From positions 2,914-66,913 of the forward strand of contig JAWSVN010000038.1 of the NCBI GenBank assembly GCA_033851875.1: a stretch of 64,000 bases of DNA, in the 5' to 3' direction. The notes below the pieces were generated by a model. The model did no database searches and was not told the DNA's origin. It saw nothing but the letters and a program-made list of their open reading frames with translations. The translations under genes were made by a program, and so were the position numbers. Position 1 is the first letter of the stretch, and every line of letters starts with the position of its first letter. Of this stretch, positions 1 to 50,669 are shown in pieces. The stretch is from Acidimicrobiales bacterium. Its GTDB lineage: Bacteria; Actinomycetota; Acidimicrobiia; Acidimicrobiales; SZUA-35.

Positions 1-642
1 CCTATCGCCCATTCGGTCCGTCATGGCCTCATTTGCCGCTGCAATCATCTCACGCCGCTCCGTGCGAGAGGGTCGGGCCTCTGGGGCGAAATCTCTCCCG
101 AACGGACTCGCAGCAAAGTCTGGCCTGCTGTCAACTTCTGCAGGAAAGCTCGCTGGCGGCCTCGCCAAGGCAGTACTTGAACACAACAGGACCGCCGTCA
201 ACGCTGATATTGCAGCGGGTAACACTCTTCTTGGACTCATTGCCTCACCTCTCTCAGCCATATCTTGGCCTCGAACGTTGGTCTAACATGACCTAGCGTC
301 ACGTTCAAGTCCATCAGTGACGTCGGGAGCAACTGTCTGGGACCATCCAAGCAGGGATGGTTGGCAGGAGTCTGACAACTTGCGGTGGTGGGTTGCCGCG
401 CCGCAGGAACTCGCCATCGCCGCCCCGAGTGGCCGACTGCGACCGTCGAATGCGCCGAGACTCACCAGTAGCAACCATGTCGAAGTCGTGCCCCACGAGC
501 CTCGAGCGATCGGCGGCACCGAACCTACGGATATCGCCCCCTTCGGTTCCAGAGTCTCCAGTCGTGACCACAGGGCAGCGTTTTGGTACCGGGTTGGTAC
601 CCGCCGGCCACAGCATTCCCAGCTGTGGTGGCGCGCAACTCA

Positions 643-1332
643 ATGGTCGACAGTGCACTGCGAGCCTCGCTGCGATGGCACTCCGAACTACTGAGAGGGG
701 TTGCAGCTGTTCAGGATGCTCTTGGCCTGGAGGGAAAGGCGAGCTGCCTCGCATCCCACCCCTACGAAGGGGAATTCGATCGCGTTGTTGGCAATTGCCT
801 GCCCCGACGCCTGCTGCTCGAGGTCGCACGACGCGACACTGCAGCTCTTGAGACTCTCCGACGTGAGCGAGCGCAGATTTCGTCGAGTCTGAGTGAGGCT
901 GATTTTCAGCTCGCAAGCGCGTATATCGTCAGCCGGACCTCAGGGGCTTCGCGCGCAAGCAGTTCGTCGTCCGGAACGAGCGGACCAGAAGTCCCCCTCG
1001 AGCTCATTCGCTTCGACCTGCTAGCCCGCTTGCCGTCTAGGTCGAGCCTGACGACGCAGATCGGGGCGCTGGAGAAGGCCCTCGAGGCGGAGGCAGAGCG
1101 GCAGACCCCACTAACAGCAGAGGAGCGTCGCGTTTTGGCTGCCCTAGCCTCGGGGCAGAAAATGGCAGACGTCGCCGAGGCAGAGAGTGTTTCGGAACGA
1201 ACGCTATACCGACGCACCGGCGACATTTGTGCTCGGCTTGGCACCACAAGCCTTCGGGAGGCCATCTCCACCGCCGCAGAGTCTGGGTGGCTCGTAGGGC
1301 AGGGCCGAGGCCGACGAGGCACTCCTCGCTAG
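643..1332 (+). CDS. LuxR/GerE-family transcriptional regulator (C-terminal HTH)
   Basis: ORF 583..1332. C-terminus LTAEERRVLAALASGQKMADVAEAESVSERTLYRRTGDICARLG is a GerE-type HTH. The track start at 583 is TTG; the first in-frame ATG at 643 is preferred. The N-terminal ~150 aa has no domain I recognise. Confidence 0.6.
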   Translation: MVDSALRASLRWHSELLRGVAAVQDALGLEGKASCLASHPYEGEFDRVVGNCLPRRLLLEVARRDTAALETLRRERAQISSSLSEADFQLASAYIVSRTSGASRASSSSSGTSGPEVPLELIRFDLLARLPSRSSLTTQIGALEKALEAEAERQTPLTAEERRVLAALASGQKMADVAEAESVSERTLYRRTGDICARLGTTSLREAISTAAESGWLVGQGRGRRGTPR

Positions 1333-2983: not shown

Positions 2984-3472
2984 ATGCCCTTGCAGATTCG
3001 GTCAGCCTCCGAAGCCGATCATGCCTTCCTCGAGGACATGACCTTCGAGGCGATCTTCGTGCGGCCCGACACCGAACCGTTCGGACGAGAGGTCCTCGAC
3101 GACCCGTCGATCCGCCACTACTTCGCCGAGTTCGGCCGACGCCCCGGCGACACCGGACTCGTCGCATTCGACGGGGATCGTCCCGTCGGCGCAGCTTGGG
3201 TCCGCCGGTTCTCGGCCGAGCATCCGGGATACGGCTGGGTCGACGAGCACACCCCCGAGCTGACGATCGCTCTTGCACCGTCACACCGGAACCTCGGGCT
3301 CGGCGCACAGCTACTCACAGCCCTGTTCAAGGCCCTCGCCGAGCAAGGCGTGGTGCAGCTCTGCCTGAGCGTCGACGACCTCTCCCCCGCTCGGGCGCTC
3401 TACCGACGTCTCGGCTTCGTCGAGGTCGCCGAAGAGGGCACCGCCGTCACGATGCTGCGCCAGCTGCCCTGA
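2984..3472 (+). CDS. GNAT-family N-acetyltransferase
   Basis: 162 aa. The acetyl-CoA binding core HRNLGLGAQLLTALFKALAEQG ... ARALYRRLGF matches the GNAT motif A/B pattern. Confidence 0.8.
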   Translation: MPLQIRSASEADHAFLEDMTFEAIFVRPDTEPFGREVLDDPSIRHYFAEFGRRPGDTGLVAFDGDRPVGAAWVRRFSAEHPGYGWVDEHTPELTIALAPSHRNLGLGAQLLTALFKALAEQGVVQLCLSVDDLSPARALYRRLGFVEVAEEGTAVTMLRQLP

Positions 3473-3528
3473 GCGCACGCCGCGGCCCTGATTCGGCCCC
3501 TCCGACACACCGACTACAACGGAGCGTC

Positions 3529-3981
3529 ATGAACACCCGCCTCCCACTCACGTCACGGCGACTCTTGGTGATCGCGCTGGCCCCGTTGGTGCTGGCAGCG
3601 GCCAGGTGCGCTCCCGGCGACACTTCCGTGGATCAGGTGGACATCGTGTCGTTCCTCGGTCCGAGGGAGGAGAGCGGCGCTGATCTGGGTTCCGGGTGGT
3701 CGCGCCAACTCGAGCTCGTGTTCTCCGACGCCGACGCTGAGGTGCTGGGGCTCGAAAGCTCGGCCAACCGCTACGAGCCGGCGGGCGCGGATGCGCTCTA
3801 CCTCGAGCTCGAGACCGGGCTGGAGGCGGACTCGTTCGACCAGTTGAACTACATCTGTTATGCGGGCGACGTCATCGTCCGCGACCTTGTCAACGGCACC
3901 GAGGCCGTTATCGCCGAGGCCGGGCGCTGTGAGTTCGAGACGAGGATCAAGCTCGACGCGAAGGCGCTGTTCTCACCCTGA
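3529..3981 (+). CDS. Putative secreted/lipoprotein, unknown function
   Basis: In-frame ATG at 3529 inside track ORF 2977..3981, preceded by GGAG (3521-3524). N-terminus MNTRLPLTSRRLLVIALAPLVLAAARC is signal-peptide-like. The upstream part of the track ORF is Arg/Pro-rich shadow sequence overlapping the GNAT gene. Confidence 0.5.
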   Translation: MNTRLPLTSRRLLVIALAPLVLAAARCAPGDTSVDQVDIVSFLGPREESGADLGSGWSRQLELVFSDADAEVLGLESSANRYEPAGADALYLELETGLEADSFDQLNYICYAGDVIVRDLVNGTEAVIAEAGRCEFETRIKLDAKALFSP

Positions 3982-3990
3982 CGTAGCCGC

Positions 3991-4054
3991 CGACAGCTCC
4001 AGGATCTTTCCTTCGCCGAAGTCAACCAGGTAGAGACGGCCGTCGTCGACCACC
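3991..4054 (-). pseudogene. Orphan 3'-end remnant homologous to the C-terminus of the dehydrogenase gene at 6358..7419
   Basis: 58/64 nt identical to 6370-6433. The minus-strand translation VVDDGRLYLVDFGEGKILELSAATSG* (stop at 3973-3975) parallels VVDDGRLYLIDFGNGEILELSAGA*. There is no homologous gene body upstream of it (4055 onward). Confidence 0.6.
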
Positions 4055-4164
4055 CGAGGCGAGCGCAACGGTCACGTAACCATCCCGAGCGGCGATCGCC
4101 ATCGGGAGCTACAAAGGTCAATGCGAGGCTGTCGTGTCGGCCTCCGAGGCTTGAAAGGGCGGCA

Positions 4165-5082
4165 ATGGACGCGTTGATCGACGAACACCTACGCGCATCG
4201 GAAGCGATCGCTCGCAACGATCCGGGAGCAGGCGCGCTCCACTTCTGCCACGTCTCGCGCGCCACGTACCACCTAGCAGGGGTGGAAGGCTGGCCCAACG
4301 CGATTGCGGCGTTTGAGGAGTCCGAGCTCGCCTCGTTGTTCAGGCGCGATCCCCTGACCAGGTGGTCAGCAGAACGGCCTCGGGGCTACCCCGGAGATGC
4401 CGGCCTGCTCGACCTGATCTATGACCACGTCGACTCGAATCGGTCCGCTGTCGAGTCCGCAGGCGACTCGATCGCGGCGGCCGTCAATGCGGTGACCTGG
4501 AACGCTCCGGAGCCTGCCGCGGTTCGCTGGCGCCGCGCCCACATCGCGGAGGAGATGGCTCGGAGATTCGCTCAACGACCCGACACGTCGGTCCTCTCCG
4601 TGGCGTCCGGGCACTGCCGCGAGCTCGAGCTGATCGACCTCGACGAGCACGAACCGATCTGGCTGGTCGACCAGGACGAAGACTCTCTGGCAGAGGCGAA
4701 GCGTAGCTACGGCGACCTCGTGGAGCCGCATCACCTCAACATCTCATCACTGCTCAGGGATTCCCTGCGAGACGAGCGCTTTGACCTGATCTACTCGCTC
4801 GGTCTCTTCGACTACCTCGACGACCGGGCAGCTCGCTTGCTGCTCTCCTCCCTCCAGAAGTCCGTGGCGACGGGCGGCGAATTGATCGTGGCCAACTTCG
4901 CGCCCTGGCCGGTGTCGATCGGCTACATGGAGTCCGCGATGCGTTGGAAGTTGATCTACCGGACCGAACTCGACCTTCGACGGATCTGGGAAGCGACACC
5001 GCTCGCCGATCACTTCAGTCTTCGCACCTACCGAGATCCTGCTGGCACTGTGGTCTACCTGGCGGCGAACCGCAGGAACTGA
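4165..5082 (+). CDS. Class I SAM-dependent methyltransferase-like protein
   Basis: 305 aa. Rossmann MTase-like motifs: VLSVASGHCRELE, LVDQDEDSL, FDLIYSLGLFDYL, GGELIVANF. ATG start at 4165. Confidence 0.6.
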   Translation: MDALIDEHLRASEAIARNDPGAGALHFCHVSRATYHLAGVEGWPNAIAAFEESELASLFRRDPLTRWSAERPRGYPGDAGLLDLIYDHVDSNRSAVESAGDSIAAAVNAVTWNAPEPAAVRWRRAHIAEEMARRFAQRPDTSVLSVASGHCRELELIDLDEHEPIWLVDQDEDSLAEAKRSYGDLVEPHHLNISSLLRDSLRDERFDLIYSLGLFDYLDDRAARLLLSSLQKSVATGGELIVANFAPWPVSIGYMESAMRWKLIYRTELDLRRIWEATPLADHFSLRTYRDPAGTVVYLAANRRN

Positions 5083-5087
5083 GCCTC

Positions 5088-6314
5088 GTGGTCGACATTC
5101 CTGCTATCGCACGGGCGATCGTCGGCGGCATTGCGACCGTCGGCCCCATCCTCTGCGCTGTTGGAGTGGCCTACGTGAGCGCCGCGTTGCTGGGGCCCCG
5201 GCCGCGCCGAGCGCGCTACGCGCTCGCTCGGCGAGGCTTCGATCCCGAAGGCCATCTGATCCCGCTCGACCGTGGCGTCGTCCTGGCAACAGCGGCGATC
5301 GTCTCCTTGGCCGTATCGTTCGCAATCGAGGAAGAGGTCCGTGTCGGGCCCAACCGGGCGATCGATCAGCTGCTTCCAGAGGGCGCCGAGACGTGGGTAC
5401 TGCAGCACGGCACGGATCACTTCATGAACAACAGCGCGATCGATCCGGCAAGCGCCGAACAAGTCCTTGCTCAACTCTCGGATATGGGCGAAGGCGCCGT
5501 ATTGGTCTCGGGAACTCTGGCTTCCGTGACGGTCGGCGAGGATCGAGTCACGGGCTTCGTCTTCGCGCTGCCAACGAGCCAGAACCCCGTGCCCCGCCGC
5601 GGCCACACCTGCGAGTCCGAGAGCGATCAGCCGTGTCTCCTACCACGCTCCGGCGCCATCGTGGACGCCGGCGAAGGAGTAGGAATCGGTGACTCGATCA
5701 GTGTTCGCGGCGTTCCGCTCGAAGTCGTCGCGCACCCCGAACGGCCACGATCACTTCTGAATCGACTCGTCGTCTACGTGGACCACGAAGCCTTCGCCCG
5801 GATCGAACCCGGGAGTCGCTACTTCGCGATCGCCACAACTGCGCCGGTTGCCGAACTCGGCCCACTTCCGGCCGGCCTGGAGGCATTGTCGACGGACGAA
5901 CTCCGCCAGCGGAACGAGGCGTTCTGGGCGGGCAACGGAACGCCGCTCCTGCTGCTCCTGATCCTGCTCGTGATGACCTTCGCCAGCACCGCCCTGTACG
6001 GCGCTCTACGGACCGACTACGACCGCCATCGACGGCTTCTGTCAACGCTGTGGGCCCTTGGACAGACTCGAACCGAGATGCTCGACACGTTCCTTCTCCG
6101 AAGCCTTCACCTCACCGCCCTTGCCGCACCACCTGCTGCGGCGCTTTCGTGGATTCTGATGGCGGCCAGTTCAGCGACCATCCTCGGCTTCAACGGACGG
6201 ATCACCCTCCTTCACCTGCTGGGAGCAACCGGCTCGGTCATCGCGTGCTCGTTGGCGACGATCAGCGCCCTTGCCGTGGCGACCCGCAACGCCACCCCCG
6301 CCGCGCACCTCTAG
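5088..6314 (+). CDS. FtsX/MacB-like ABC permease-family membrane protein (no cognate ATPase adjacent)
   Basis: Track ORF 4944..6314 trimmed to the in-frame GTG at 5088, 6 nt after the methyltransferase stop. It has an N-terminal TM helix, a large extracytoplasmic region, and a C-terminal FtsX-type module (RRLLSTLWALGQTRTEMLDTFLLRSL plus 3 TM helices). Confidence 0.6.
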   Translation: MVDIPAIARAIVGGIATVGPILCAVGVAYVSAALLGPRPRRARYALARRGFDPEGHLIPLDRGVVLATAAIVSLAVSFAIEEEVRVGPNRAIDQLLPEGAETWVLQHGTDHFMNNSAIDPASAEQVLAQLSDMGEGAVLVSGTLASVTVGEDRVTGFVFALPTSQNPVPRRGHTCESESDQPCLLPRSGAIVDAGEGVGIGDSISVRGVPLEVVAHPERPRSLLNRLVVYVDHEAFARIEPGSRYFAIATTAPVAELGPLPAGLEALSTDELRQRNEAFWAGNGTPLLLLLILLVMTFASTALYGALRTDYDRHRRLLSTLWALGQTRTEMLDTFLLRSLHLTALAAPPAAALSWILMAASSATILGFNGRITLLHLLGATGSVIACSLATISALAVATRNATPAAHL

Positions 6315-6357
6315 TCGGGGCTGGCCGGGCGTGAGCGGTCGGGCATCATCTGGCCCG

Positions 6358-7419
6358 TCAGGCGCCGGCCGACAGCTCCAGGATCTCGCCGTTGCCGAAG
6401 TCGATCAGGTAGAGACGGCCGTCGTCGACCACCAGCTGCTGGGGCCGCTCGACCGAATCGAGCAGCGTGGCGACCGCTCCCCCGTCGGCCGGCACCGACA
6501 CGACCTCGCCGGCATTCCACAACGCCACCAGCAGCTCACCCGGCTGCCACGGCGACTCGACGATCGACGTCGGCGTCGCTCCCCGGTCGAACACGATCAG
6601 GGAGCCAGGCACGTCGGCGCAACGCTCGGCGGTGCCGTCGAACTCAGCCACCGGTCGGTTGTCGTCCACGCAGTGCGGCCAGCCGTGATCCGCTCCCTCG
6701 GCGACGGCCACCACCTCGTCGAGCGCGACCTCACCGTCGTAGACACCGTCCGCGATCTCGACGGTCCACAGCGTCCCGTCGCTCGCCCGCACCTGTGCGT
6801 ACGCGTTCTTGAACCCGGAGCCGACCGGCTCCACCGCACCATCGGGGCCGACGGCCCACAACACGCCGGACGAGAGCGTCGGCGACGCCGGCGGCTCGAT
6901 CCGGCTGCGCAACGAGCCGGTGGTGGCGAACAAGAGCCGCTCGCCCCCATCGACGACGTCGACGCTGAGCGAACCCGACGACCGACCGTTGAACGCCATG
7001 TCATCGACGACGACCTCGACCTCGGAACCGTCGAGCGTCGACACCGTGAGCCGGCGACGTTCCTGCACCCACAGCCGACCATCGAACACGGCGACGCCGG
7101 TCGGCTTGTCGAGCCCGGTCCGCACCGCCTCGCCGACCACGCCCGTCGCCGGATCGACGGGCACCACCGAGCCCGCCTCGTCGTTCTCTCCGCCCGACAG
7201 CTGGGCGACGAACCACGTCCCATCGGGCCCCACGGCGAACTGGGTCGGCCCATCGAGTCCCCCGACGACGGCTCGAACCGCCAGCGAGGTGCCGTCGACC
7301 GCTCCCCCATCGTCGGCCGACGCCGCCGGCTCGGTCTCGTCGGCAACGCAGCCGACCAACACGCAGGCGACGGCGAACACGATCGCGACCGGCCCTCGGC
7401 GGAACACGGCCCGCCTCAC
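6358..7419 (-). CDS. PQQ-dependent sugar dehydrogenase-like (GSDH/SGL type) beta-propeller lipoprotein
   Basis: Repeated propeller blade-like segments (GPDG..., GLDKPTGVAV, HGWPHC). Lipoprotein signal VAIVFAVACVLVGC. The start is set at GTG 7419, which overlaps the upstream NYN stop as GTGA; the track start at 7488 would overlap that gene by 72 nt. Confidence 0.7.
   Translation of the reverse strand: MRRAVFRRGPVAIVFAVACVLVGCVADETEPAASADDGGAVDGTSLAVRAVVGGLDGPTQFAVGPDGTWFVAQLSGGENDEAGSVVPVDPATGVVGEAVRTGLDKPTGVAVFDGRLWVQERRRLTVSTLDGSEVEVVVDDMAFNGRSSGSLSVDVVDGGERLLFATTGSLRSRIEPPASPTLSSGVLWAVGPDGAVEPVGSGFKNAYAQVRASDGTLWTVEIADGVYDGEVALDEVVAVAEGADHGWPHCVDDNRPVAEFDGTAERCADVPGSLIVFDRGATPTSIVESPWQPGELLVALWNAGEVVSVPADGGAVATLLDSVERPQQLVVDDGRLYLIDFGNGEILELSAGA
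6370..6433. repeat. Right copy of 64-bp direct repeat (partner 3991-4054)
   Basis: Direct comparison of the two stretches gives 58/64 identical positions, spaced 2379 bp apart. This copy is the functional 3' end of the 6358..7419 gene. Confidence 0.85.
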
Positions 7420-8087
7420 AGCGACGCCAGGAACGCGTCGACGTCGGCGTCGTCGAGCGGTTCGAAGTAGTCGAATCGATCCCGGCACGCTTCGACCACG
7501 TCTCGATCGATCTCGTGGAAGGCGTCGTAGCCGGCCAGGGTCCGCTCGTCGCCGCGTTCCTCCGACACGAACGCCACCTCCACCTGCCGCCGTCGACCGT
7601 TCAACACGCCGCCTCGCTCGGCCACCTCGTCGGCGATCTCCATCAGGTCGCGGTCACGCGACACGATGATCGCCGTGTCGCACTCGTCGCTCAACAGCGC
7701 ACCCACTGCGTCGAGGGCGAGGGCAACGTCGATCCCCTTCTCCCGTGCGCCGCGATGCCGCTTCACGCGGGCCCGAGCGACGTCGGGCGCCGTGTCGTAC
7801 CAGGGCGGGTCGAGGTCGCGGTCCTGCACCCGCCACTCCCAGTGGTAGCGGAGGGTCCGTTCGGTCACCCGCACCCCGGTCCGCTCGATCAGGTCGTGGC
7901 GACGCCGCACCACCTCGAACATCTGCGCGTTCTCGTCCGGGTCGTGGATCCCGGAGTAGTAGCGGGTGCCGACGAGCCGGCGCCCCTCCCCCGCCAGCGT
8001 CCGGGCGAGCAGCACCGGGTGGAGCCGGGCCCGGTAGCGACGCTGCAGCCCCTTGAACAGGTTCTGCCCGTCGATGAACACCATCAC
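7416..8087 (-). CDS. NYN-domain (LabA/DUF88, PIN-like) putative ribonuclease
   Basis: VMVFIDGQNLF ... EKGIDVALALDAV ... DTAIIVSRDRDL is the NYN signature. The start is trimmed to GTG 8087 (or ATG 8084), with GGAG about 10 nt upstream. The track start at 8258 would leave no promoter space. Confidence 0.7.
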   Translation of the reverse strand: MMVFIDGQNLFKGLQRRYRARLHPVLLARTLAGEGRRLVGTRYYSGIHDPDENAQMFEVVRRRHDLIERTGVRVTERTLRYHWEWRVQDRDLDPPWYDTAPDVARARVKRHRGAREKGIDVALALDAVGALLSDECDTAIIVSRDRDLMEIADEVAERGGVLNGRRRQVEVAFVSEERGDERTLAGYDAFHEIDRDVVEACRDRFDYFEPLDDADVDAFLASL

Positions 8088-8258
8088 CCGCTCTGACTCC
8101 ACCGGCGCTGTGTCCACCCGCTGACCTTCCGACCGTTCCGCATCGCTCACCACCCGATCGTCGCACGCCCACCGACCGAAGTGGCGGCCCCAGGCTCGGC
8201 GAGCGTGGCGAGCCATCGACCCCACCCCTCTGGTTGCGGCGCCGTCCATACTGGCCAA

Positions 8259-8483
8259 GTGCTGAACGTGACGATCGAACTGCCCGACGACGTCCTGCCG
8301 ATCATCGAGGGTCTCGACGTGCCGTTGTCGGAGTGGGTCACCGATCGGCTACGCGACCATGCCTCGGGGACCACGTCATCGTTCGCAGGCGAGATCATCG
8401 CTGATGCCGTGCTCGCTCAAGACGAGACTCCGGCCAGTCCCGAGGCGGTCGACAGCCGCCTGGGACGGTCGGCGCCCTGGTGA
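8259..8483 (+). CDS. Small hypothetical protein, RHH/antitoxin-like N-terminus
   Basis: 74 aa from the in-frame GTG at 8259. VLNVTIELPDDVLPIIEGL resembles small CopG/RHH proteins. It is divergent from the NYN gene. Weak call. Confidence 0.3.
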   Translation: MLNVTIELPDDVLPIIEGLDVPLSEWVTDRLRDHASGTTSSFAGEIIADAVLAQDETPASPEAVDSRLGRSAPW

Positions 8484-8509
8484 GCGTCAGCCGACGTCGC
8501 GGCGCTCGA
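8451..8509. repeat. Left copy of 59-bp direct repeat (partner 9209-9267)
   Basis: 56/59 identical to 9209-9267. It contains the real stop of ORF 8259..8483 and a dead copy of the ABC-2 permease 3' end (LERRDVG* on the minus strand). Confidence 0.85.
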
Positions 8510-8649
8510 GACGAGGCGCTCTGCCGCACACTCGGCCTTTGAGCGTCGCCGGAACGATGGTCGCGCACCTCGCGTACTCGCCCGAGTTCACCCAGCGCTT
8601 TGATCACGGCACTCAGCGAGATCGGCCAGCTTGTTCGCAGTGAGGTGAG

Positions 8650-9045
8650 CTAGGGACTGGATATCTCTACTCTCGAGTCCGTCGAGGTGCGACAAACCCC
8701 GCCCTCGGCGGACTCGGAAGTGACCACGGTGGCCTGGCCTGTCCCCAACACTTCGAGCCCTCTGCTTGTCTCGCGAAACAGCGCGAAGTCTGTCGCTTCG
8801 GTTGCCGGGTTCGGACCGCGAATCGATTGCTCATCAATCAGCTCGACGGCCGTTCCTCGTGCCAGCTCGACGCCACCGGCCGTTACAACTAGGACCTCCT
8901 GGGCGGAGATTTCGAGGTGTTCAGGAATGAGAAGGACAAAGGCGGCGTCCTCGCCTGTGCCCTTTCCGCATGTCTCCGAACACCCAACCAACGACAGAGC
9001 GGCAGTGATCGCAGCAACGACTGCTGCTCTCGACATCCCAGCCAT
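8650..9045 (-). CDS. Small lipoprotein, unknown function
   Basis: Track ORF 8650..9192 trimmed to ATG 9045. MAGMSRAAVVAAITAALSLVGC is a classic lipobox. The region is visibly less GC-rich than its flanks. Confidence 0.5.
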   Translation of the reverse strand: MAGMSRAAVVAAITAALSLVGCSETCGKGTGEDAAFVLLIPEHLEISAQEVLVVTAGGVELARGTAVELIDEQSIRGPNPATEATDFALFRETSRGLEVLGTGQATVVTSESAEGGVCRTSTDSRVEISSP

Positions 9046-9208
9046 CTCACTGTCATCGGCAGATTCTCTCGCTACTTGTGAGCTCTTCGGAGGTGGCGAG
9101 GCTCTGGTATCGGGAAAACTGCGGGCCCGGAGCGGACGTACCTGCGAATCTGAGGGCGTCTGAGCCGCGCGGATTGCACGCTCCTCGAACAAGAGAACGA
9201 GGCGCTCC

Positions 9209-9267
9209 GACAGCCGCCTGAGACGGTCGGCGCCCTGGTGATCCTCAGCCGACGTCGCGGCGCTCGA
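9209..9267. repeat. Right copy of 59-bp direct repeat (partner 8451-8509)
   Basis: It contains the real 3' end and stop (9245-9247) of the ABC-2 permease and a dead copy of the small-ORF end (DSRLRRSAPW*). Confidence 0.85.
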
Positions 9268-10852
9268 ACAGGGCGACGCCGGCGACCGTGCCGGCCAGAC
9301 CGATCGTGGTCAGCACCACGAGCGACAGCCACGGCTGGGCGTCGAAGGGCTGATGGGTCACGTGCGGCAGCGGCGACAGCTGCTGCACGACCATCGGCAA
9401 CCGCAACAGCTCGCCGAACAGGAACAGGATCGCCGACGCCCCGAAGGCGAACCACCCGGCCGACGCGGTGCGCCCCGACCAGCCGGTCAGTAGGACCGCC
9501 ACGCCGGTGACGGCGACGACGGCCGGCACCCGAGCCAGCGCACCCCACACCCCATCCGCGAGGCCGGTGAACTCGCCGGTGACGGCGGCGTCGGCCCCGT
9601 AGGTCCCGATCACGGCCGCCAGCAACAACATCGGCGCGGCGACCTGGGCGACCACGACGAAGGCCCCGAACCAGCGCCGCCGAGATGCGGCGGTGCCGAG
9701 GATCGCCTCCGCTCGCCCCTCGCGTTCCTCGGTGCGGATCCTCACGATCACCTGGAGCGCAGCCGCCATCGCCATCATCGCCAGCAGGGTCAGCGCCATC
9801 GAGGCGAAGCCCTCGCGGATCGAGTCCGACGACATCCCCATCGCGTCGAGCATGTCGGCCATCGTCTCGTTGTCCTCGACGAACTCGTCGAGCGACGACA
9901 GCATCGAGCCCCAGACCGCCCCGAAACCCGCAATCCCGATCGCCCACCACCACAGCGTCTGCCGCTGCAACCGCCACACCAGGCCGAGTGGCGAGACGAG
10001 CGAATCGGCGGCCCGAGGCGGCCCCGGCCGCTGGCCGATCAGTCCGGCGCCGACGTCACGCCGTCGGCTCAACGCTGCGGCCGCCACGACCCCGATCGGC
10101 ACGAGCACCGCCAAGACCGGCAGCGGCCAGATCCGGATGTCGCCATAGGGATTGAGGTGCTGGGCGAGACCGATCGGCGACAGCGTGACGAGCCAGTCAC
10201 CTCGCACATCGCCGGCGGCCCGGATCACATAGGCGAACGCGAGGAACGACATCGCCCCGCCGACCGCTCCCTTGCCGAACTCGAAGACCTGCACGATCAC
10301 GAGGGTCGCCGCGGCGAACACGAGCCCACTCAGAGCGAGACCCGACGAGAACAGCAGGGTGCGGGCCGGGTCGATCCCGTCGGCGACGAAGGTGGCGAAG
10401 ATGACCCCGCCGATCGCGGCGTTGGCGACCGCCGCTTCGGTCATGACCGCGGCGATCCGGGCCCAGGGCCCGACGGGCAGCGACCGGGTGAGTTCGACGC
10501 GGCCGGCTTCTTCCTCGGCTCGGGTGTGACGGATCACGAGCAGCAGGTTCATCAAGCCGACGATGGCGAACGTGAACGCGCTGAGTTCGAACGCGTAGCG
10601 ACCGCCGAAGGTGTCGAGCGCGTCGGCCGGCCCCGACATCGCCACCATGGCCGCGTTGGTCTCGACCAGCACCCCCTGCTCGGCCAGGATCACCTCGGGC
10701 GCCACACCCCGTGCGGCCGCCTCGGTCTCGGTGAGCGACCGCACCGAGGTCGGCGTGATCCCGACGAGGAGCCCGAGACCGAGGAGCCACATCGGCAGCT
10801 TGATCCGGTCGAGGCGGAACAGCAGCCGCAGGATCGTCAGGTAGCCGGTCAC
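9245..10852 (-). CDS. ABC-2 type exporter permease (multi-TM)
   Basis: 535 aa, about 12 hydrophobic segments. It lies 17 nt downstream of an ABC ATPase gene on the same strand. This architecture is typical of ABC-2/polyketide-exporter-like permeases. Confidence 0.8.
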   Translation of the reverse strand: MTGYLTILRLLFRLDRIKLPMWLLGLGLLVGITPTSVRSLTETEAAARGVAPEVILAEQGVLVETNAAMVAMSGPADALDTFGGRYAFELSAFTFAIVGLMNLLLVIRHTRAEEEAGRVELTRSLPVGPWARIAAVMTEAAVANAAIGGVIFATFVADGIDPARTLLFSSGLALSGLVFAAATLVIVQVFEFGKGAVGGAMSFLAFAYVIRAAGDVRGDWLVTLSPIGLAQHLNPYGDIRIWPLPVLAVLVPIGVVAAAALSRRRDVGAGLIGQRPGPPRAADSLVSPLGLVWRLQRQTLWWWAIGIAGFGAVWGSMLSSLDEFVEDNETMADMLDAMGMSSDSIREGFASMALTLLAMMAMAAALQVIVRIRTEEREGRAEAILGTAASRRRWFGAFVVVAQVAAPMLLLAAVIGTYGADAAVTGEFTGLADGVWGALARVPAVVAVTGVAVLLTGWSGRTASAGWFAFGASAILFLFGELLRLPMVVQQLSPLPHVTHQPFDAQPWLSLVVLTTIGLAGTVAGVALFERRDVG

Positions 10853-10868
10853 AACGCGCGCCCCGTCC

Positions 10869-11777
10869 TCACCGCAGGGTGCCGTTGCGGGTGGGCTCCA
10901 CCGAGTAGTGCCGCAGGAACAGTTCCTCGAGCGTCGGAGGCTGGCTGATCAGGGCTTCGATCCCGAGCCCGGCCAGGTCGGCCATCACCTCGGTCAGGTC
11001 GTCGTTGGCGACGGTGAACGACACGTGGCGGTCGTCGTGGCGAGCGACGTCCTCGATGCCGGGCCGCGCCAGGACCCCGTCGAGCGGCTGCACGGTGGTC
11101 ACCTCGACCGCCGTCCGGGTCAGATGCCGCAGCTCGGCGAGCGAGCCGGTCTCGACCGTGCGGCCCTCCCGGATGATGGTCACCCGATCACACAGGGCCT
11201 CGACCTCGGCCAGGATGTGGCTGGAGAGCAGGACGGTCCGGCCCTCGTCCTTCGCAGCACGGACCTCGTCCTGGAACACCGACTCCATCAGCGGGTCGAG
11301 GCCCGACGTCGGCTCGTCGAACACGAACAGCTCGGCCCGACTCGCCAGGGCGGCGACCAGGGCGACCTTCTGCTTGTTGCCCTTGGAGTAGGTGCGGGCC
11401 TTCTTGGTCGGGTCGAGCTCGAAGCGTTCGATCAGCTCGGCTCGACGGGTCTCGTCGAGGCCGGAACCGAGGCGGCCGAACAGGTCGATGACCTCTCCCC
11501 CGGTGAGACTGGGCCACAGGTTGGTGTCGCCCGGCACGTAGGCGAGGCGGCGGTGCAGGTCGACGGCGTCGCGCCACGGGTCGCCGCCGAGCAGGGAGAC
11601 CTCCCCGGCGTCGTGGCGGAGCAGTCCCATCAACACCCGGATCGTGGTCGACTTGCCCGACCCGTTCGGCCCGAGGAACCCCATCACCTCGCCCGACTCG
11701 ACGCTGAGGTCGAGTCCGTCGAGCGCTCGGGTGGCCCCGAACGCCTTGTGGAGTCCGATGGCCGAGATCGCCGTCAT
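10869..11777 (-). CDS. ABC transporter ATP-binding protein
   Basis: Walker [10 protein letters not shown], signature [11 protein letters not shown], Walker [14 protein letters not shown]-loop LLSSH. Confidence 0.92.
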
Positions 11778-26624: not shown

Positions 26625-27089
26625 TCAGAGGGGTTGGTGCGGTTCGATGCCGTCACCCATCGGGCAGGCGACATCGCGCTGCCCCCGACCGATCGGCAGG
26701 AAACACAGCGAACAGACGAACGTGTCGCCGACTTTGGTCGACGCCGCGTTCGACGAGCCCGACTCGTCGTCGTCCTCGTCGTCCTCATCATCGTCGGCCG
26801 TAGCCATACGGACTTTGAGGATCTCCTCCAGATCGGCCTCGACATCGTCGGGGTCGTCGTCCTCGTCCTCGTCCTCGTCTTCAGCGTCGACTCGGCGGGC
26901 CCGGGGGCGGGCCTCTTCCTCGTCGTCGTCGTCGCCTTCTTCGTCGTCGTCCTCGTCGCTGAGTTCGCCGCCGAAGTCGTCGCCAATTTCGTCGTCGAGG
27001 TCGTCGTCCTCGAGGTCGTCGGGATCGACCTCGTCGTCCATCTCCTCTTCGTCTTCGAGGAGTTCGTCGTTGAGTTCTTCGTCGCTCAT
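26625..27089 (-). CDS. DUF4193-family protein (extremely acidic N-terminus, Cys-containing C-terminus)
   Basis: Trimmed to ATG 27089 (MSDEELNDELLEDEEE...). The C-terminal FVCSLCFLPIGRGQ...CPMG matches the DUF4193 pattern as I recall it. Confidence 0.75.
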   Translation of the reverse strand: MSDEELNDELLEDEEEMDDEVDPDDLEDDDLDDEIGDDFGGELSDEDDDEEGDDDDEEEARPRARRVDAEDEDEDEDDDPDDVEADLEEILKVRMATADDDEDDEDDDESGSSNAASTKVGDTFVCSLCFLPIGRGQRDVACPMGDGIEPHQPL

Positions 27090-27233
27090 TGGCTTCTTCG
27101 GTCCCGTACCAGTTCGTCGATTCGGCCGGACTCTACACAGGCCGAGCTGCGCCGCGTGGCACCCCACCAACAATCTCGGCCGGAGAGGTGTGACCTCCCT
27201 CACTCCGAGACCGGTTCTGGTCCGGTCAGCGGG

Positions 27234-39477: not shown

Positions 39478-40844
39478 AGGCTCTCGATGAGCTTCGCCAC
39501 CCGATCGTCCTCGTAGCGGAACGGGTCCTTGCAGAGGACGGTGCGCTGGGCCTGATCGTTGAGCTTCAGGTGCACCCAGTCGACGGTGTAGTCACGCTTG
39601 CGTTCCTTCGCCTTCGCGATGAACTCGCCCCGGAGCTTCGCCCGCGTCGTCTGGGGCGGCAGCTCGACGGCCTCGAACATCTCGTCGTCGTGCAGGGTCC
39701 GCTCGACCATGTCACGGTTCTGGAGCTTGTAGAACAGTCCACGGTCGCGGCGGATGTCGTGGTACTGCAGGTCGATCAACTGCACCCGAGCGTCGGACAG
39801 GGGCAGATCGTGCTTGGCCCGATACGACTCGACCAGATTGTGCTTGATCACCCAGTCGAGCTCGCGGTCGAGCTTGAACGGGTCCTGTTCGAGATGGGTC
39901 ATCACGTGCTCCCACATGTGGAGCGCCTGCATCTCGTCGTCGGGAAGACCCTTCACCTCGGCGTAGCGAAGCGCCCGATTCAGGTACTCGCTCTGGATCT
40001 CGAGAGCCGACGCCTCACGGCCGTTGGCCAGACGAACCTTGCGGGTCATCGTCAGGTCGTGACTGATCTCGCGGATCGCGCGGATCGGGTTCTCGAGCGT
40101 CATGTCGCGCAGGACGCACGACGGGTCCTCGACCATGCGCAACAACACCGCCATCGCGCCGACCTTGAGGAAGGTCGTGTACTCGCTCATGTTCGAGTCG
40201 CCGACGATCACGTGCAGGCGCCGGAAGTGCTCGGCGTCGGCGTGGGGCTCGTCGCGGGTGTTGATGATCGGCCGACTCCGGGTGGTCGCCGACGAGACTC
40301 CTTCCCAGATGTGTTCGGCCCGCTGCGAAACAGCGAACATCGCGCCACGAGCGGTCTGGAGCACCTTGCCGGCGCCGGCGTAGATCTGGCGAGACACCAG
40401 GAAGGGGATCAGCACCTCGGAGTAATGGCTGGTGTCGTCGCTGCGGTGCGTCAGGTAGTTCTCGTGGCAGCCATAGGAGTTGCCGGCCGAGTCGGTGTTG
40501 TTCTTGAACAGGTGGATGACGCCGCGGATGCCCTCGTCGCGCAGGCGCTCCTCCGCCGAGTCGAGGAGCTGTTCGAGGATGCGCTCGCCGGCCTTGTCGT
40601 GGACGACGACCTGCCCGATCGAGTCGCACTCGGCCGTGGCGTACTCGGGGTGGGACCCGACATCGAGGTAGAGCCGGGCGCCGTTGACGAGGAAGACGTT
40701 CGACGAACGCCCCCACGACACCACCCGGCGGAACAGGTATCGAGCCACCTCGTCCGGGCTCAGCCGACGCTGACCGCGCAGGGTGCAAGTGACCCCGTAC
40801 TCGGTCTCGATGCCGTAGATGCGCCGTTGCTCCACGTCGCTCAA
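39474..40844 (-). CDS. pafA: Pup--protein ligase PafA
   Basis: [11 protein letters not shown]..., [19 protein letters not shown] and [16 protein letters not shown] are Pup-ligase/Dop family signatures. The PafA-type N-terminus and its position next to prcA and pafBC support the call. Confidence 0.95.
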
Positions 40845-43721: not shown

Positions 43722-43838
43722 GGGTCAACCTCAGGGCCCCTCAGGCCCGCACACCGACCCAACGCCGCAAGACCCCGGACCTCGTTCGCATCGGGTCAAC
43801 CTCAGGGCCCCTCAGGCCCGCACACCGACCCAACGCCG
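43722..43838. repeat. Two perfect 46-bp direct repeats (43722-43767, 43793-43838; period 71 bp) in the convergent intergenic region
   Basis: gggtcaacctcagggcccctcaggcccgcacaccgacccaacgccg occurs twice exactly. It is flanked by a C-rich tract (43678-43704) and a G-rich tract (43846-43879). Confidence 0.9.
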
Positions 43839-49157: not shown

Positions 49158-50669
49158 TCAGGCCCCGAGCTTGTCGAGCAGCTCGGCGGCGGTCGTGCTC
49201 TCGTCGAGCAACTGACCCACGTGGGCGAGCGTACCCCGGACCGGTTCGAGCATGGGAACGCGGCGCAACGGTTCGTCGCCGGTATCGAACACGATCGAGT
49301 CCCAGTTGGCGGCCACGACGTTGTCGGCGAACTTCTGAAGGCAGCGCCCGCGGAAGTAGGCCCGAGTGTCCTCGGGCGGGTTGCGGACCGCGTCGGCGGC
49401 CTCGGCGTCGTCGACGATCGCTTCGAGGCCGGCGCGCGCCGCCAGCGACTTGGTCGGCCGCAGGTCGTGGTACTGCACGTCGAGCGCCCTCAGCCGCGGG
49501 TCGTCCCAGCCGCAGTCGTGCCGCTCGCGGAATCCGTCGAGGATGCGCTTCTTGGCCACCCAGTCGACCTGGCCGGCGACGGAGTCGGGGTCGCGTTCGA
49601 GGCCGGTCAACACCTGCTCCCATCGACGAAGCACGTCGCGGGTCACCTCCTCGCCACCGACGACGTCGAGATCGGCCTGGTCGGCCCACGCCGTGGCCTG
49701 CTCGAGCAGGTCGAGCTGCACCTCGAGGGCGGTGATCGACGTCCCGCCGGCGAGCGCCAGGGGTTCGGCGAGGCTCAGGTCATGGCTCACCTGGTGCATC
49801 GCCGGCACCGGTTCACGGAACATCGGCACCTCGAGCACGCCGTCCTCGGCCATGGCGAACACCAGGGCCGAGGTGCCGACCTTCAGGAAGGTGGCAACCT
49901 GGGCGAGGTTGGCGTCGCCGACGATCACGTGAAGGCGCCGGTAGCGCTGGGAGTCGGCGTGGGGCTCGTCGCGGGTGTTGATGATCGGCCGCTTGAGCGT
50001 CGTCTCGAGGCCGACCTCCTCCTCGAAGTGCTCGGCCCGCTGGGTGAGCTGGAACGGCACGTCGCCGATGCCCATCCCAGGGAGTTCGCTGCCGACCTTG
50101 CCCGAGCCGGTGAAGATCTGACGGGTGATGAAGTGGGCGGTGCCCGCGGCGATGATCTGCCCGAACGGCAACGATCGGTCGAGGAGGTAGTTCTCGTGGG
50201 TGCCGTAGGCGTTGCCCTTGCGGTCGGTGTTGTCCTTGTAGAGGACGATCTCCTGCCCGGGCGGCAGGGCGTCGATCGCCCGCTCCATCGAGGCGACGGC
50301 GATCAACTCGGCGGCCCGGTCCCACACGACGATCGAGCGGGCGTCGCGGCACTCCGGGGTCGAGATCTCGGGGTGGGCGTGGTCGACGTAGTAGCGGGCG
50401 CCGTTGGTCAGCACCGCGTTGACGAGATGGGTCTCGATCTCCGGCGGCATGGCGAACTCGGGCGGCACGAGCTCACGGGCGTCGGCGCCCGGGGTCTCGT
50501 CGATGAAGTCCCAGGCGATCGGCACCGACCGTTCATCGAGGCCGCCGGTCTCGCCGCCGACGTACGCGTTGATCACCAACGACGAGGCCGACACCGGGTT
50601 CCAGTCGGGGGTGCCACGCACCATGACCCCGAGTTCGGTCTCGATGCCGACGATCTTGGGCAGCGCCAT
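49158..50669 (-). CDS. dop: Pup deamidase/depupylase Dop
   Basis: MALPKIVGIETELGV..., GARYYVDHAHPEISTPEC, and a Dop-specific insert relative to PafA. It lies immediately upstream of pup. Confidence 0.95.
   Translation of the reverse strand: MALPKIVGIETELGVMVRGTPDWNPVSASSLVINAYVGGETGGLDERSVPIAWDFIDETPGADARELVPPEFAMPPEIETHLVNAVLTNGARYYVDHAHPEISTPECRDARSIVVWDRAAELIAVASMERAIDALPPGQEIVLYKDNTDRKGNAYGTHENYLLDRSLPFGQIIAAGTAHFITRQIFTGSGKVGSELPGMGIGDVPFQLTQRAEHFEEEVGLETTLKRPIINTRDEPHADSQRYRRLHVIVGDANLAQVATFLKVGTSALVFAMAEDGVLEVPMFREPVPAMHQVSHDLSLAEPLALAGGTSITALEVQLDLLEQATAWADQADLDVVGGEEVTRDVLRRWEQVLTGLERDPDSVAGQVDWVAKKRILDGFRERHDCGWDDPRLRALDVQYHDLRPTKSLAARAGLEAIVDDAEAADAVRNPPEDTRAYFRGRCLQKFADNVVAANWDSIVFDTGDEPLRRVPMLEPVRGTLAHVGQLLDESTTAAELLDKLGA

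Follow-up and report, generated by a model that had tools for sequence, protein, structure and literature searches.

How can a single foreign gene come to stand between two convergent genes when no gene for its mobilization accompanies it? The question is posed by a locus of an uncultured Acidimicrobiales bacterium (GCA_033851875.1, contig JAWSVN010000038.1) within a stretch of 64,000 nucleotides, hereafter the window. Here, the abutting 3' ends of a small open reading frame and a transporter gene are present twice, as direct repeats on either side of a predicted lipoprotein gene. We conclude that a foreign 698-bp segment was inserted with a 60-bp duplication, most likely (probability about 0.55) by illegitimate, microhomology-guided joining through host repair or replication enzymes.

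One duplication spans both convergent gene ends

The direct repeats are 60 nt long (8450–8509 and 9208–9267), identical at 57 positions, and follow each other with a period of 758 bp. A sequence-only reading of this DNA had found the pair and its period, both of which stand; the length it gave, 59 bp with 56 identical positions, is one nucleotide short. Gapped BLAST stretches the similarity to 8441–8509 versus 9198–9267 (70 columns, 92.9%); the edges of the 60-mer are sharp, the homology past them not being significant. With up to three mismatches allowed, the 60-mer occurs at two sites in the 64-kb window and in none of 100 shuffled sequences. Its conserved 23-mer has three matches in JGI metagenomes, all at unrelated loci and due to chance. 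The same reading had considered a dispersed REP-like element, which would be present in many copies at unrelated loci; with two copies in the window and three unrelated metagenome loci for the 23-mer, no such element is seen.

The gene on the left is a small ORF of 74 aa (8259–8483, plus strand), which matches no known family and is conserved in the relative L001 (dN 0.051, dS 0.168). On the right lies the gene of a 535-aa permease (9245–10852, minus strand), downstream of an ABC ATPase gene (10869–11777) and named after its homologues, which their sources label ABC-2 type transport system permease. As read from the sequence and as noted before, each repeat copy combines one live and one dead gene end. 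In the left copy, the live 3' end of the small ORF with its stop (8481–8483) is followed by a 3-nt spacer and then, as a dead copy, by the last seven permease codons plus stop. In the right copy, it is the small-ORF end that is dead, and beyond the spacer the permease 3' end is live, with its stop at 9245–9247. Because the duplicated 60 bp include both stop codons, neither gene lost its end.

A hairpin or terminator in the target was rejected as a cause: shuffled sequence folds as well as the repeat region does (z −0.36 to −0.57), and no Rfam family was hit. Promoter-like sites were not found, and the two terminator-like sites are weak and both within the lipoprotein gene.

The insert is polymorphic among close strains

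The ancestral empty site that had been predicted, with one repeat and the two stops 3 nt apart, exists in two relatives. L001 (Acidimicrobiales MAG14; permease 88% identical at the amino acid level) is distant, with a dS of 0.43, and L008 (GCA_041156685.1; flanks 98.5–98.9% identical) is nearly the same strain, with a dS of 0.037. In the alignments of both, each flank, left or right, continues from the repeat copy on its own side. Two further candidates, L002 and L003, were discarded as outgroups, their permeases being only 52% and 35% identical and their downstream context different.

The filled site recurs in at least six other assemblies. Besides the window's own contig, GCA_041156625.1, GCA_041156705.1, and Logan SRR26541466 contain the complete structure, GCA_041156645.1 the left junction with the insert, and GCA_041156865.1 and ENA ERZ23487426 the right junction. 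Two filled assemblies are 99.5% strain variants, and in one filled strain (L005) the insert is ~8% diverged with its junction unchanged. At 758 bp, the ENA contig of L005 has the length of the repeat period and was therefore considered as an excised circle. It proved to be linear and corresponds to window positions 8568–9325, which makes the equal length a coincidence. The insert lineages have a dS of 0.13, compared with 0.037 for the split between the window and L008. L006 is filled, yet it shares derived alleles at 10223–10313 with the empty L008, and because of this mosaic population, dating of the insertion relative to L008 is not decisive. The locus is a genuine insertion that is polymorphic within a recombining population.

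Comparison with the empty sites also separates the two repeat copies. The left copy is identical to the single 60-mer of L008. The right copy differs from it at positions 14, 35, and 37, all within its own non-functional part, and at position 35 shows the base of the outgroup L001, which is ancestral and was lost from both the left copy and the empty allele. All substitutions since the duplication (5/5) fall into the non-functional half of their own copy. Judged by these bases, the two 60-mers have separate histories.

The inserted segment is foreign and carries a single gene

The insert (8510–9207, 698 bp), missing from L001 and L008, is foreign in composition. As previously noticed, it is less GC-rich than its surroundings: its GC content is 0.62 against a window mean of 0.692, a value equally low in only 0.6% of 698-bp windows, and the GC3 of the lipoprotein ORF is 0.65 against 0.80–0.93 in neighboring genes. 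Similarity between the insert and its flanks was not found. In agreement with the sequence-only reading, one ORF is called in the 698 bp, and its translation shows the L-V-G-C lipobox behind a predicted signal peptide. This gene (8650–9045, minus strand; 131 aa, starting MAGMSRAAVVAAITAALSLVGC) shares the orientation of the ABC operon and is located 199 nt downstream of the stop of the permease gene.

The lipoprotein is a near-orphan. It belongs to one 90% cluster among 5.8 billion proteins, and an exhaustive HMMER search of 1.84 billion representatives retrieved one real relative, the 53% identical P0140. This distant homologue sits on L020, which comes from the ENA sample of L005, has no DNA similarity to the window, and provides no junction information. 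Two other matches, P0141 and P0142, were rejected because they look like low-complexity repeat matches. Searches of Pfam, NCBIfam, and PADLOC families were without a match, revealing neither a nuclease nor a methyltransferase, and the AlphaFold model (pLDDT 44) is unusable. With a dN/dS of 0.38 relative to L005, the lipoprotein is under moderate purifying selection.

Genes and signals for mobility are absent, as the sequence-only reading had stated. The insert and the called genes from ~1 to 12.5 kb of the window include no recombinase, integrase, or transposase, no terminal inverted repeats pair the insert ends, and the window contains no tRNA or tmRNA gene. A second copy of the insert was found neither in the window nor in plasmids and phages (blastn) or JGI metagenomes (protein patterns), and these three collections likewise yielded no donor sequence.

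The ends of the insert are direct rather than inverted repeats. The 11-mer ACGAGGCGCTC occurs twice in the window, at exactly the two insert ends: the left copy (8511–8521, plus strand) is preceded by an orphan G at 8510, while the right copy (9197–9207, plus strand) directly abuts the right 60-mer and is also present in the diverged strain L005. Moreover, the chromosomal 10-mer CGAGGCGGTC (8441–8450, plus strand) overlaps the start of the left 60-mer by its last base. Nine of its 10 positions agree with the insert-terminal CGAGGCGCTC, and gapped BLAST connects it to the repeat; it is the candidate microhomology for the right junction.

A second, older event at the next convergent junction

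Another repeat-bracketed event, older than the first, is located 2 kb away at the next convergent junction. Its left, dead repeat copy (3989–4054, 66 bp) reproduces the 3' end of an NHL/GSDH-like gene (6358–7488, minus strand), is identical at 60 of 66 positions to the live right copy inside that gene (6368–6433), and is missing from L001. The duplication probably began originally at 6352, giving ~82 bp with the stop codon included. Between the copies, the inserted segment (4055–6351) contains a methyltransferase-like gene (4165–5082), with a generic SAM-methyltransferase-like domain below Pfam cut-offs, and the gene of an FtsX-like membrane protein (5088–6314). This insert is missing from L001 and present in all close strains. 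By our reconstruction, the left copy of this older duplication appears to be interrupted by a further segment, “gene A” (3503–3990), which contains the gene of a 150-aa secreted protein (3529–3981) and has a 5-bp CGACA repeat on either side.

The different length of the second duplication (66 to ~82 bp versus 60 bp) argues against an enzyme with a fixed stagger. Motifs common to both events are probably due to chance. CGACAGC at the repeat edges and CGAGGCG at the insert starts were both rejected as signals, since these 7-mers are frequent (0.4–0.8 per kb per strand), and after reconstruction of the second duplication CGACAG no longer lies at its edge. The end sequences of the two inserts have only one 7-mer in common, which is frequent in the genome (0.78 per kb per strand). 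Weak homology outside the edges of either repeat (60 bp, 66 bp) would have been a sign of a homologous but diverged donor locus; it is not significant (p 0.22–0.69). Two other repeat pairs of the window do not bracket insertions: 40197/49914 lies within paralogous genes, and 43722/43793 is an intergenic tandem feature.

Microhomology-guided joining as the probable origin

An insertion with target duplication, already proposed as the simplest reading, agrees with the empty sites, the non-dispersed 60-mer, the foreign insert, and the lack of a mobility gene. The match of 10 bases of the 11-mer to the target flank (9/10) further points to microhomology-guided illegitimate joining; how the ends were joined, what form the donor had, and in which direction later exchanges ran are our inferences. 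Both ends of the incoming DNA would join recipient positions 60–70 bp apart in crossed order. This could occur when the ends attach to two sister chromatids, when a staggered break is filled in, or when replication switches its template away from the chromosome and then returns to it; by each of these routes, the interval between the attachment points would be copied. Experimentally, inter-chromatid integration of a single donor fragment creates duplications (PMC3784515), and heterologous DNA is captured by NHEJ where the chromosome is broken (PMC6379672). A circular or tandem donor copied for slightly more than one unit is suggested by the 11-bp terminal redundancy, which may alternatively be the target duplication of an earlier insertion. 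Selection would have retained only an event whose duplication spared both genes, and the 60-bp repeats may later have served as recombination substrates, contributing to the presence/absence polymorphism.

Some features do not fit this joining smoothly. Between the 11-mer and the chromosome that follows the 60-mer on the right, only 6 of 8 positions agree (manual count, p of about 0.05), the left junction is without clean microhomology, and the orphan G at 8510 is left over. Further, a simple duplication of an L008-type site would not yield A14 and T35 in the right copy, where the left copy and L008 have G14 and G35. To arrive at the right-copy bases, one would need an excision at a later time, a recombination tract that ends within the 60-mer, or a 60-mer copy that came in from outside.

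An incoming copy is the essence of a Campbell-type integration, which we consider possible, if doubtful. A small circle consisting of the insert and its own 60-mer, perhaps released from another strain by repeat recombination, would have entered the empty site either by homologous recombination over 60 bp or through a recombinase encoded elsewhere, in the manner of a cis-mobilizable attL/attR element. Such an element-borne 60-mer, with a crossover to the right of position 37, gives the right-copy bases in the fewest steps: at positions 14 and 35, the right copy is unlike the recipient-type 60-mer (L008, left copy), and it shares T35 with the outgroup L001 and A14/T35 with the 8%-diverged insert of L005. 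In addition, the insert lineages look older than the window–L008 split, as horizontal spread predicts, and a release step has been hypothesized for insertions of this kind (PMC2853133). Nevertheless, the integration leaves unexplained how the duplication first arose and why the 11-mer lies on both sides of the 60-mer in the putative circle. It also finds no recombinase in or near the insert, no further copies or att-like sites, and no circle junction, the L005 contig being linear. Moreover, in a recombining population, a filled allele moves far more easily via its long flanks than by a crossover within 60 bp.

The precise loss of the insert is central to another reading, in which the lipoprotein gene is ancestral, the repeats stem from an old local duplication, and L001 and L008 became empty by independent precise deletions. 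Repeat-mediated deletion is plausible and may well be the explanation for L008, which has the left-copy 60-mer with its derived G35. L001 speaks against it, as this genome has the ancestral T35 instead of the left-copy type, together with an intact 3-nt spacer. Given also that the GC and GC3 of the insert are far from those of native genes, that the insert has no similarity to the flanks, and that duplicating both gene ends would still need an insertion-type event at some time, we consider an ancestral gene very unlikely. A chimeric join or a mis-resolved repeat could be suspected in a metagenome-assembled source with a ~60-bp repeat near common k-mer sizes, but such an artefact is refuted for practical purposes: the same structure in independent assemblies (at least six, including the two 99.5% variants and the strain with ~8% insert divergence) speaks against it, the substitutions follow functional constraint, and copies differing at three positions would not collapse at usual k values. 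Close to refuted, too, is a MITE-like non-autonomous transposon dependent on a transposase that cuts with a very long stagger, for which the IS1634/IS1549 group (IS4 family) of Mycoplasma and Mycobacterium is the reported precedent. Long and variable target duplications are indeed known for insertion sequences, those of IS1549 of M. smegmatis measuring 71–246 bp, and the present locus has two events with duplications of 60–82 bp inside 5 kb. For the Mycoplasma transposon IS1630, 19–26 bp are cited in PMC2853133. Several observations speak against such an element: the insert ends in a direct 11-mer and not in terminal inverted repeats, the window has one copy of it and the plasmids, phages, and JGI metagenomes searched have none, and no end sequence is common to both inserts except the frequent 7-mer.

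Finally, a dedicated trans-acting system of this Acidimicrobiales lineage might underlie both events, and perhaps also the gene-A and RES-Xre segments, by placing promoter-plus-gene cassettes at convergent ends through cuts staggered by 60–80 bp, with CGACAG, which recurs at edges of duplications or insertions, and CGAGGCG, at cassette starts, as recognition sequences. In a milder version, the 11-bp redundancy would mean that insertions with long target duplication arise by template switching onto small circular DNAs. We regard this proposal as improbable; its milder version, if true, would give the class of insertions discussed below, as a whole, the mechanism it lacks.

Relation to known insertions and recombination systems

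Insertion with long target duplication was described by Nobusato, Uchiyama, Ohashi & Kobayashi (Gene 2000) and by Furuta, Abe & Kobayashi (NAR 2010; PMC2853133). According to the latter account, its duplications exceed 30 bp and vary in length, mobility genes are absent, the repeats do not recur elsewhere in the genome and in many cases cover stop or start codons, and examples come from many phyla, including the actinobacterium Clavibacter. The same pattern has been recognized for “other DNAs” as well (PMC3457768). By the published criteria, the locus is a new example of the class, here without restriction-modification cargo. Related genomes (L001 and L008) have an empty site; the duplication, 60 bp here and 66 bp or, reconstructed, ~82 bp in the second event, is longer than 30 bp; and the insert, 698 bp with one ORF next to genes without integrase or transposase, stays below 20 kb and free of other mobile-element genes. 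The repeat has two copies within the 64-kb window, to which this count of uniqueness refers, and only chance matches of its 23-mer in JGI metagenomes. Restriction and modification genes are absent from the first insert; in the Furuta study, they were a screening criterion and not a mechanistic requirement. Likewise, the class and the locus share the insertion of few genes, an empty site in a relative, a deviant insert GC content, spanned stop codons, and intact target genes.

The differences lie in cargo and junctions. The published cases come from restriction-modification screening and mostly carry such cargo, and their authors suspected DNA breakage induced by the cargo. In contrast, the first event of the present locus carries an orphan lipoprotein and the second a methyltransferase-like and FtsX-like pair, with no recognizable restriction enzyme. 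Further, one duplication covers both convergent gene ends, and the 11-bp terminal redundancy with target-flank microhomology is a feature not encountered in the consulted passages of the Nobusato and Furuta accounts.

For the proposed joining, experimental systems offer partial likenesses. In the transformation-triggered tandem duplication of Johnston et al (PLoS Genet 2013; PMC3784515), an incoming fragment pairs at two non-allelic sites of sister chromatids and the interval is duplicated, a geometry that would give repeat-insert-repeat. That system uses long homologous repeats (IS861 copies), RecA-type pairing, and duplications of 100–900 kb, whereas the locus would have ~10 bp of microhomology for pairing and has 60 bp duplicated. 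Dupuy, Sauviac & Bruand (NAR 2019; PMC6379672) describe homology-independent insertion of foreign linear fragments by host Ku/LigD, which would duplicate the target if long 5' overhangs were filled in; the reported junctions have small deletions and not 60-bp duplications, and for a stagger of 60 nt we know of no source. Elements flanked by attL/attR and cis-mobilizable elements resemble the locus in that direct repeats of tens of bp flank the insert and the 3' end of the target gene is restored. The locus differs from them by its single copy, its size of only 698 bp, the two gene ends covered, and the lack of a tRNA or other conserved att target, the 60-mer being unique in the window; a site-specific integrative element would also have a recombinase in or next to it, and the called genes from ~1 to 12.5 kb include none. 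Neither the inverted termini and several copies of an insertion sequence or MITE nor the attC and intI/attI of an integron cassette were found, the latter judged by the folding (z −0.36 to −0.57), Rfam, and the search for nearby integrases.

Insertions showing long target duplication have been catalogued for 25 years, almost only with restriction-modification genes, and their mechanism is not established in the literature. The present locus separates the phenomenon from its cargo, as it is polymorphic in a population and its cargo has no DNA-cleaving function, which argues against a nuclease of the cargo making the break. It also retains details of the junctions, namely the 11-bp redundancy and the 9/10 microhomology, with which template-switch, inter-chromatid, and end-joining models can be compared. 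The locus overturns nothing and is useful as a worked example: tight convergent gene ends can gain single accessory genes while their neighbors stay intact, and the flanking repeats provide a built-in route to precise loss.

Target duplication and the two convergent gene ends

The 698-bp insert (8510–9207) separates the small ORF (8259–8483, plus strand, 74 aa) from the convergent gene of an ABC-2-type permease (9245–10852, minus strand, 535 aa). The direct repeats that the sequence-only reading placed around it are real and have the period of 758 bp given there, but they measure 60 rather than 59 nt and are identical at 57/60 positions (8450–8509 versus 9208–9267). Allowing up to three mismatches, the 60-mer occurs at these two places only in the 64-kb window, with 0/100 shuffled sequences yielding a match, and each of its halves is likewise unique in the window. 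The repeat edges are sharp, as the 40 nt beyond either edge show no significant similarity. The small ORF stops at 8481–8483 and the permease gene at 9245–9247, as initially read; from the positions of both stops, each repeat copy reads as one live gene end joined to a dead copy of the other. The small ORF is divergently paired with an NYN-domain (LabA-like) nuclease gene (7416–8483 for the pair), which matches the PADLOC candidate defence model HEC-09 (E 6e-11). The two may constitute a toxin–antitoxin-like or defence module.

Empty and filled alleles

A permease scan of representative genomes retrieved L001 (Acidimicrobiales MAG14), whose permease is 88% identical to that of the window (dS 0.43). 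It is the empty site that had been predicted, with a single 60-mer and the permease and small-ORF stops exactly 3 nt apart. Exact-protein look-ups recovered sister assemblies of the window's population, and a second empty allele is present in L008 (GCA_041156685.1; identical small-ORF protein, flanks 98.5–98.9% identical, permease dS 0.037). In L004 (GCA_041156625.1), L006 (GCA_041156705.1), and L009 (Logan SRR26541466), the insert and both repeats equal the window over 8440–9290. L010 (GCA_041156645.1) shows complete identity from 8415 up to 9267, where its contig stops, L021 (GCA_041156865.1) contains only the right junction at 100% identity, and L005 (ENA ERZ23487426) has the same right junction with an insert diverged by ~8%. 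Taken together, these assemblies show that the repeat–insert–repeat structure is real. The insertion had a single origin and is present in some close strains but not in others. L005 was also considered as an excised circle, its length of 758 bp being that of the repeat period; the contig is a linear fragment, so this match is coincidental. Between the window and L008, 7409–8509 is nearly SNP-free, while the adjacent 6586–7408 contains 32 differences.

Junction anatomy

The insert ends in a terminal direct repeat, the 11-mer ACGAGGCGCTC (8511–8521 and 9197–9207), which occurs nowhere else in the window. Its left copy starts one base past the left 60-mer and its right copy, unchanged in the diverged L005, abuts the right 60-mer. 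Ten bases of the 11-mer (CGAGGCGCTC) are 9/10 identical to the chromosomal CGAGGCGGTC, whose last base is also the first of the left 60-mer; for this reason, the gapped BLAST repeat reaches 70 columns. At the right junction, we read this match as probable microhomology between incoming DNA and target. Its left counterpart is less clear-cut: compared with the chromosomal sequence rightward of the 60-mer, the 11-mer agrees at 6/8 positions by our count, and a single G is left over.

History of the two 60-mer copies

Three positions distinguish the copies. At position 14, L001, L008, and the left copies of all filled strains having a left junction carry G, and the right copies of the window and L005 carry A. 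At position 35, L001 and both right copies have T, while L008 and the left copies have G. At position 37, only the right copy of the window has C; all others, including that of L005, have G. The right copy of L005 shows two further changes, at positions 10 and 17 (window 9217 and 9224). All post-duplication substitutions fall in whichever half of a copy no longer encodes a live gene end. The right copy kept the ancestral T35, whereas the derived G35 is common to the left copy and the empty allele L008, which implies at least one later exchange with an end-point within the 60-mer. Candidates are precise loss of the insert from the L008 lineage by repeat–repeat recombination, homologous recombination of filled with empty strains along a tract ending in the 60-mer, and arrival of the insert with its own 60-mer copy. 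The insert lineages look older (dS 0.13) than the window–L008 split (0.037), which favors either horizontal spread or later loss of the insert. Yet the population is a mosaic: filled L006 shares derived alleles with empty L008 at 10223–10313. This mosaicism keeps the dating from being decisive, and any of the three candidates may apply.

Insert composition and the cargo lipoprotein

With a GC content of 0.62 against a window mean of 0.692, a value as low in just 0.6% of equal-sized windows, the insert is indeed less GC-rich, and its sole convincing ORF is the single cargo gene previously noted (8650–9045, minus strand, 131 aa, signal peptide and LVGC lipobox). GC3 of this ORF is 0.65, compared with 0.80–0.93 in neighboring genes. 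Window positions 1–900 are similarly GC-poor (0.60–0.64 per 698-bp window) and could be a further foreign segment; a PIN/CcdA-like toxin–antitoxin pair lies just downstream in the gene calls of the locus L012.

The lipoprotein matched none of the Pfam, NCBIfam, and PADLOC families searched. It forms one 90%-identity cluster in 5.8 billion proteins. A single credible distant relative was recovered from 1.84 billion cluster representatives: P0140 (53% identity across residues 49–124), on an unrelated contig from the ENA sample of L005. P0140 lacks a signal peptide and lies at 1276–1578 of L020 (ENA ERZ23487426 scaffold_74941; contig 65% GC). Between the window and L005, dN/dS of the ORF is 0.38, and divergence is 6.7% within the ORF compared with 14.8% in the 162 bp upstream, so that it evolves like a real, moderately constrained gene. 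The AlphaFold model is unusable (pLDDT 44). The gene has the orientation of the ABC ATPase–permease operon and begins 199 nt past the permease stop; the interval yielded no terminator-like site, so expression by read-through from the operon would be possible.

A second event at a neighboring hot spot

BLAST of related loci against the window revealed a second direct repeat of 66 nt (3989–4054 versus 6368–6433, 60/66 identical), located at the next convergent gene junction. The right copy contains the live 3′ end of an NHL/GSDH-like gene (minus strand) and the left copy its dead counterpart, and they bracket a methyltransferase-like and an FtsX-like membrane-protein gene (4055–6351). L001 lacks all of 3473–6351, and its GNAT acetyltransferase and NHL/GSDH-like stops are 9 nt apart, while the block is present in all close strains, even in L008, where the first site is empty. 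A 488-bp segment (3503–3990), flanked by a 5-bp CGACA repeat and encoding a 150-aa secreted protein (gene A, 3529–3981), seems to have inserted into the dead left copy. Once it is removed, the left copy runs on into L001-junction-like sequence, which suggests that the second duplication originally spanned probably ~82 bp, stop codon included. Right after the GNAT stop, preceded by an 11-nt filler, 3473–3502 holds a near-copy of the GNAT end and spacer (GGCCCTGA TTC GGCCCC TC), 16/19 identical to the L001 junction (TGCCCTGA CCA GGCCCC TC); it is a further small duplication within this hot spot.

L004 additionally has a RES–Xre toxin–antitoxin module at this junction. Its positions 9686–10931 correspond to window ~3424–3528 and contain ~1 kb with RES-domain toxin and Xre-like antitoxin genes in place of the window's 37-bp spacer; L004 is otherwise 99.5% identical. 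The first codons of gene A are diverged, and the upstream sequence includes a detached copy of the final 45–53 bp of the GNAT gene; the DNA before it, as far as the contig end, is unrelated. This stretch was probably imported from a more distant strain. The two events and the L004 module thus show that convergent gene ends here repeatedly took up small cargo, with differing duplication lengths.

Other repeats in the window

A perfect 46-bp direct repeat, GGGTCAACCTCAGGGCCCCTCAGGCCCGCACACCGACCCAACGCCG, occurs at 43722–43767 and 43793–43838 (25-bp spacer) in a region that looks intergenic, with C-rich and G-rich runs at its flanks. The repeat-finder output is dominated by a long GTC/CTC-rich triplet run (26700–27100), which presumably encodes, on the minus strand, a low-complexity protein segment rich in Asp/Glu. 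A stretch of ~200 nt at 76% identity (40125–40325 and 49842–50042; 78-nt core, 94%) is shared by two long minus-strand ORFs separated by 9.7 kb. The two ORFs are probably paralogous, possibly with a gene-conversion patch.

Mechanism and rival explanations

We favor illegitimate joining that is guided by microhomology and carried out by host enzymes. The incoming DNA would attach by its two ends 60–70 bp apart in crossed order, so that the interval with both stop codons would be copied, and selection would retain the event because both genes stay intact. The 11-bp terminal redundancy would fit a circular or tandem donor copied slightly beyond one unit, for example through a replication template switch leaving the chromosome after the 60-mer and returning at the CGAGGCGGTC microhomology. 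Alternatively, it could remain from target duplication at a previous site.

The main rival, integration of a small circle carrying its own 60-mer, accounts economically for the A14/T35 pattern, yet it leaves the origin of the duplication and the 11-mer on both sides unexplained, and neither a recombinase nor a circle was found in its support. Explanations by a transposon, an ancestral gene, or an assembly artefact are weak or refuted. In agreement with the sequence-only reading, no recombinase or transposase is encoded in the insert or among the called genes of ~1–12.5 kb of the window, the insert termini are not inverted, and the whole window contains no tRNA gene. There was no Rfam match, and a further insert copy was absent from the window and from plasmids, phages, and JGI metagenomes. 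Shuffled sequence folds as well as the target region does. The differing duplication length of the second event argues against a fixed-stagger enzyme, and we consider it very unlikely that a dedicated insertion system or a class-wide template-switch mechanism lies behind the event.

Relation to insertion with long target duplication

Both the original observation and its interpretation as an insertion are supported overall, and the locus matches, in its sequence pattern, insertion with long target duplication. This class, initially recognized by comparing Helicobacter pylori genomes, has since been reported from many phyla, including the actinobacterium Clavibacter (PMC2853133). Its duplications exceed 30 bp and vary (46 to >400 bp in the published tables), repeats are genome-unique, inserts carry no mobility genes and depart in GC from the genome, and target genes survive because the repeats often cover start or stop codons (PMC2853133). 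These surveys screened restriction–modification genes, and the authors suspected cargo-induced breakage (PMC2853133); a later paper noted the pattern for "other DNAs" as well (PMC3457768). In contrast to cases from that screen, the cargo here has no DNA-cleaving function. By analogy with experimental systems, the geometry could stem from inter-chromatid integration, in which one donor fragment pairing at two places makes duplications (PMC3784515), or from NHEJ capture of heterologous DNA at chromosomal breaks (PMC6379672).

Rather than a novel type of element, the finding is a new, well-documented example of a known, mechanistically undemonstrated class. It is valuable for a cargo free of DNA-cleaving function, for polymorphism and a second event resolved at the population level, and for junction detail that is preserved and testable.
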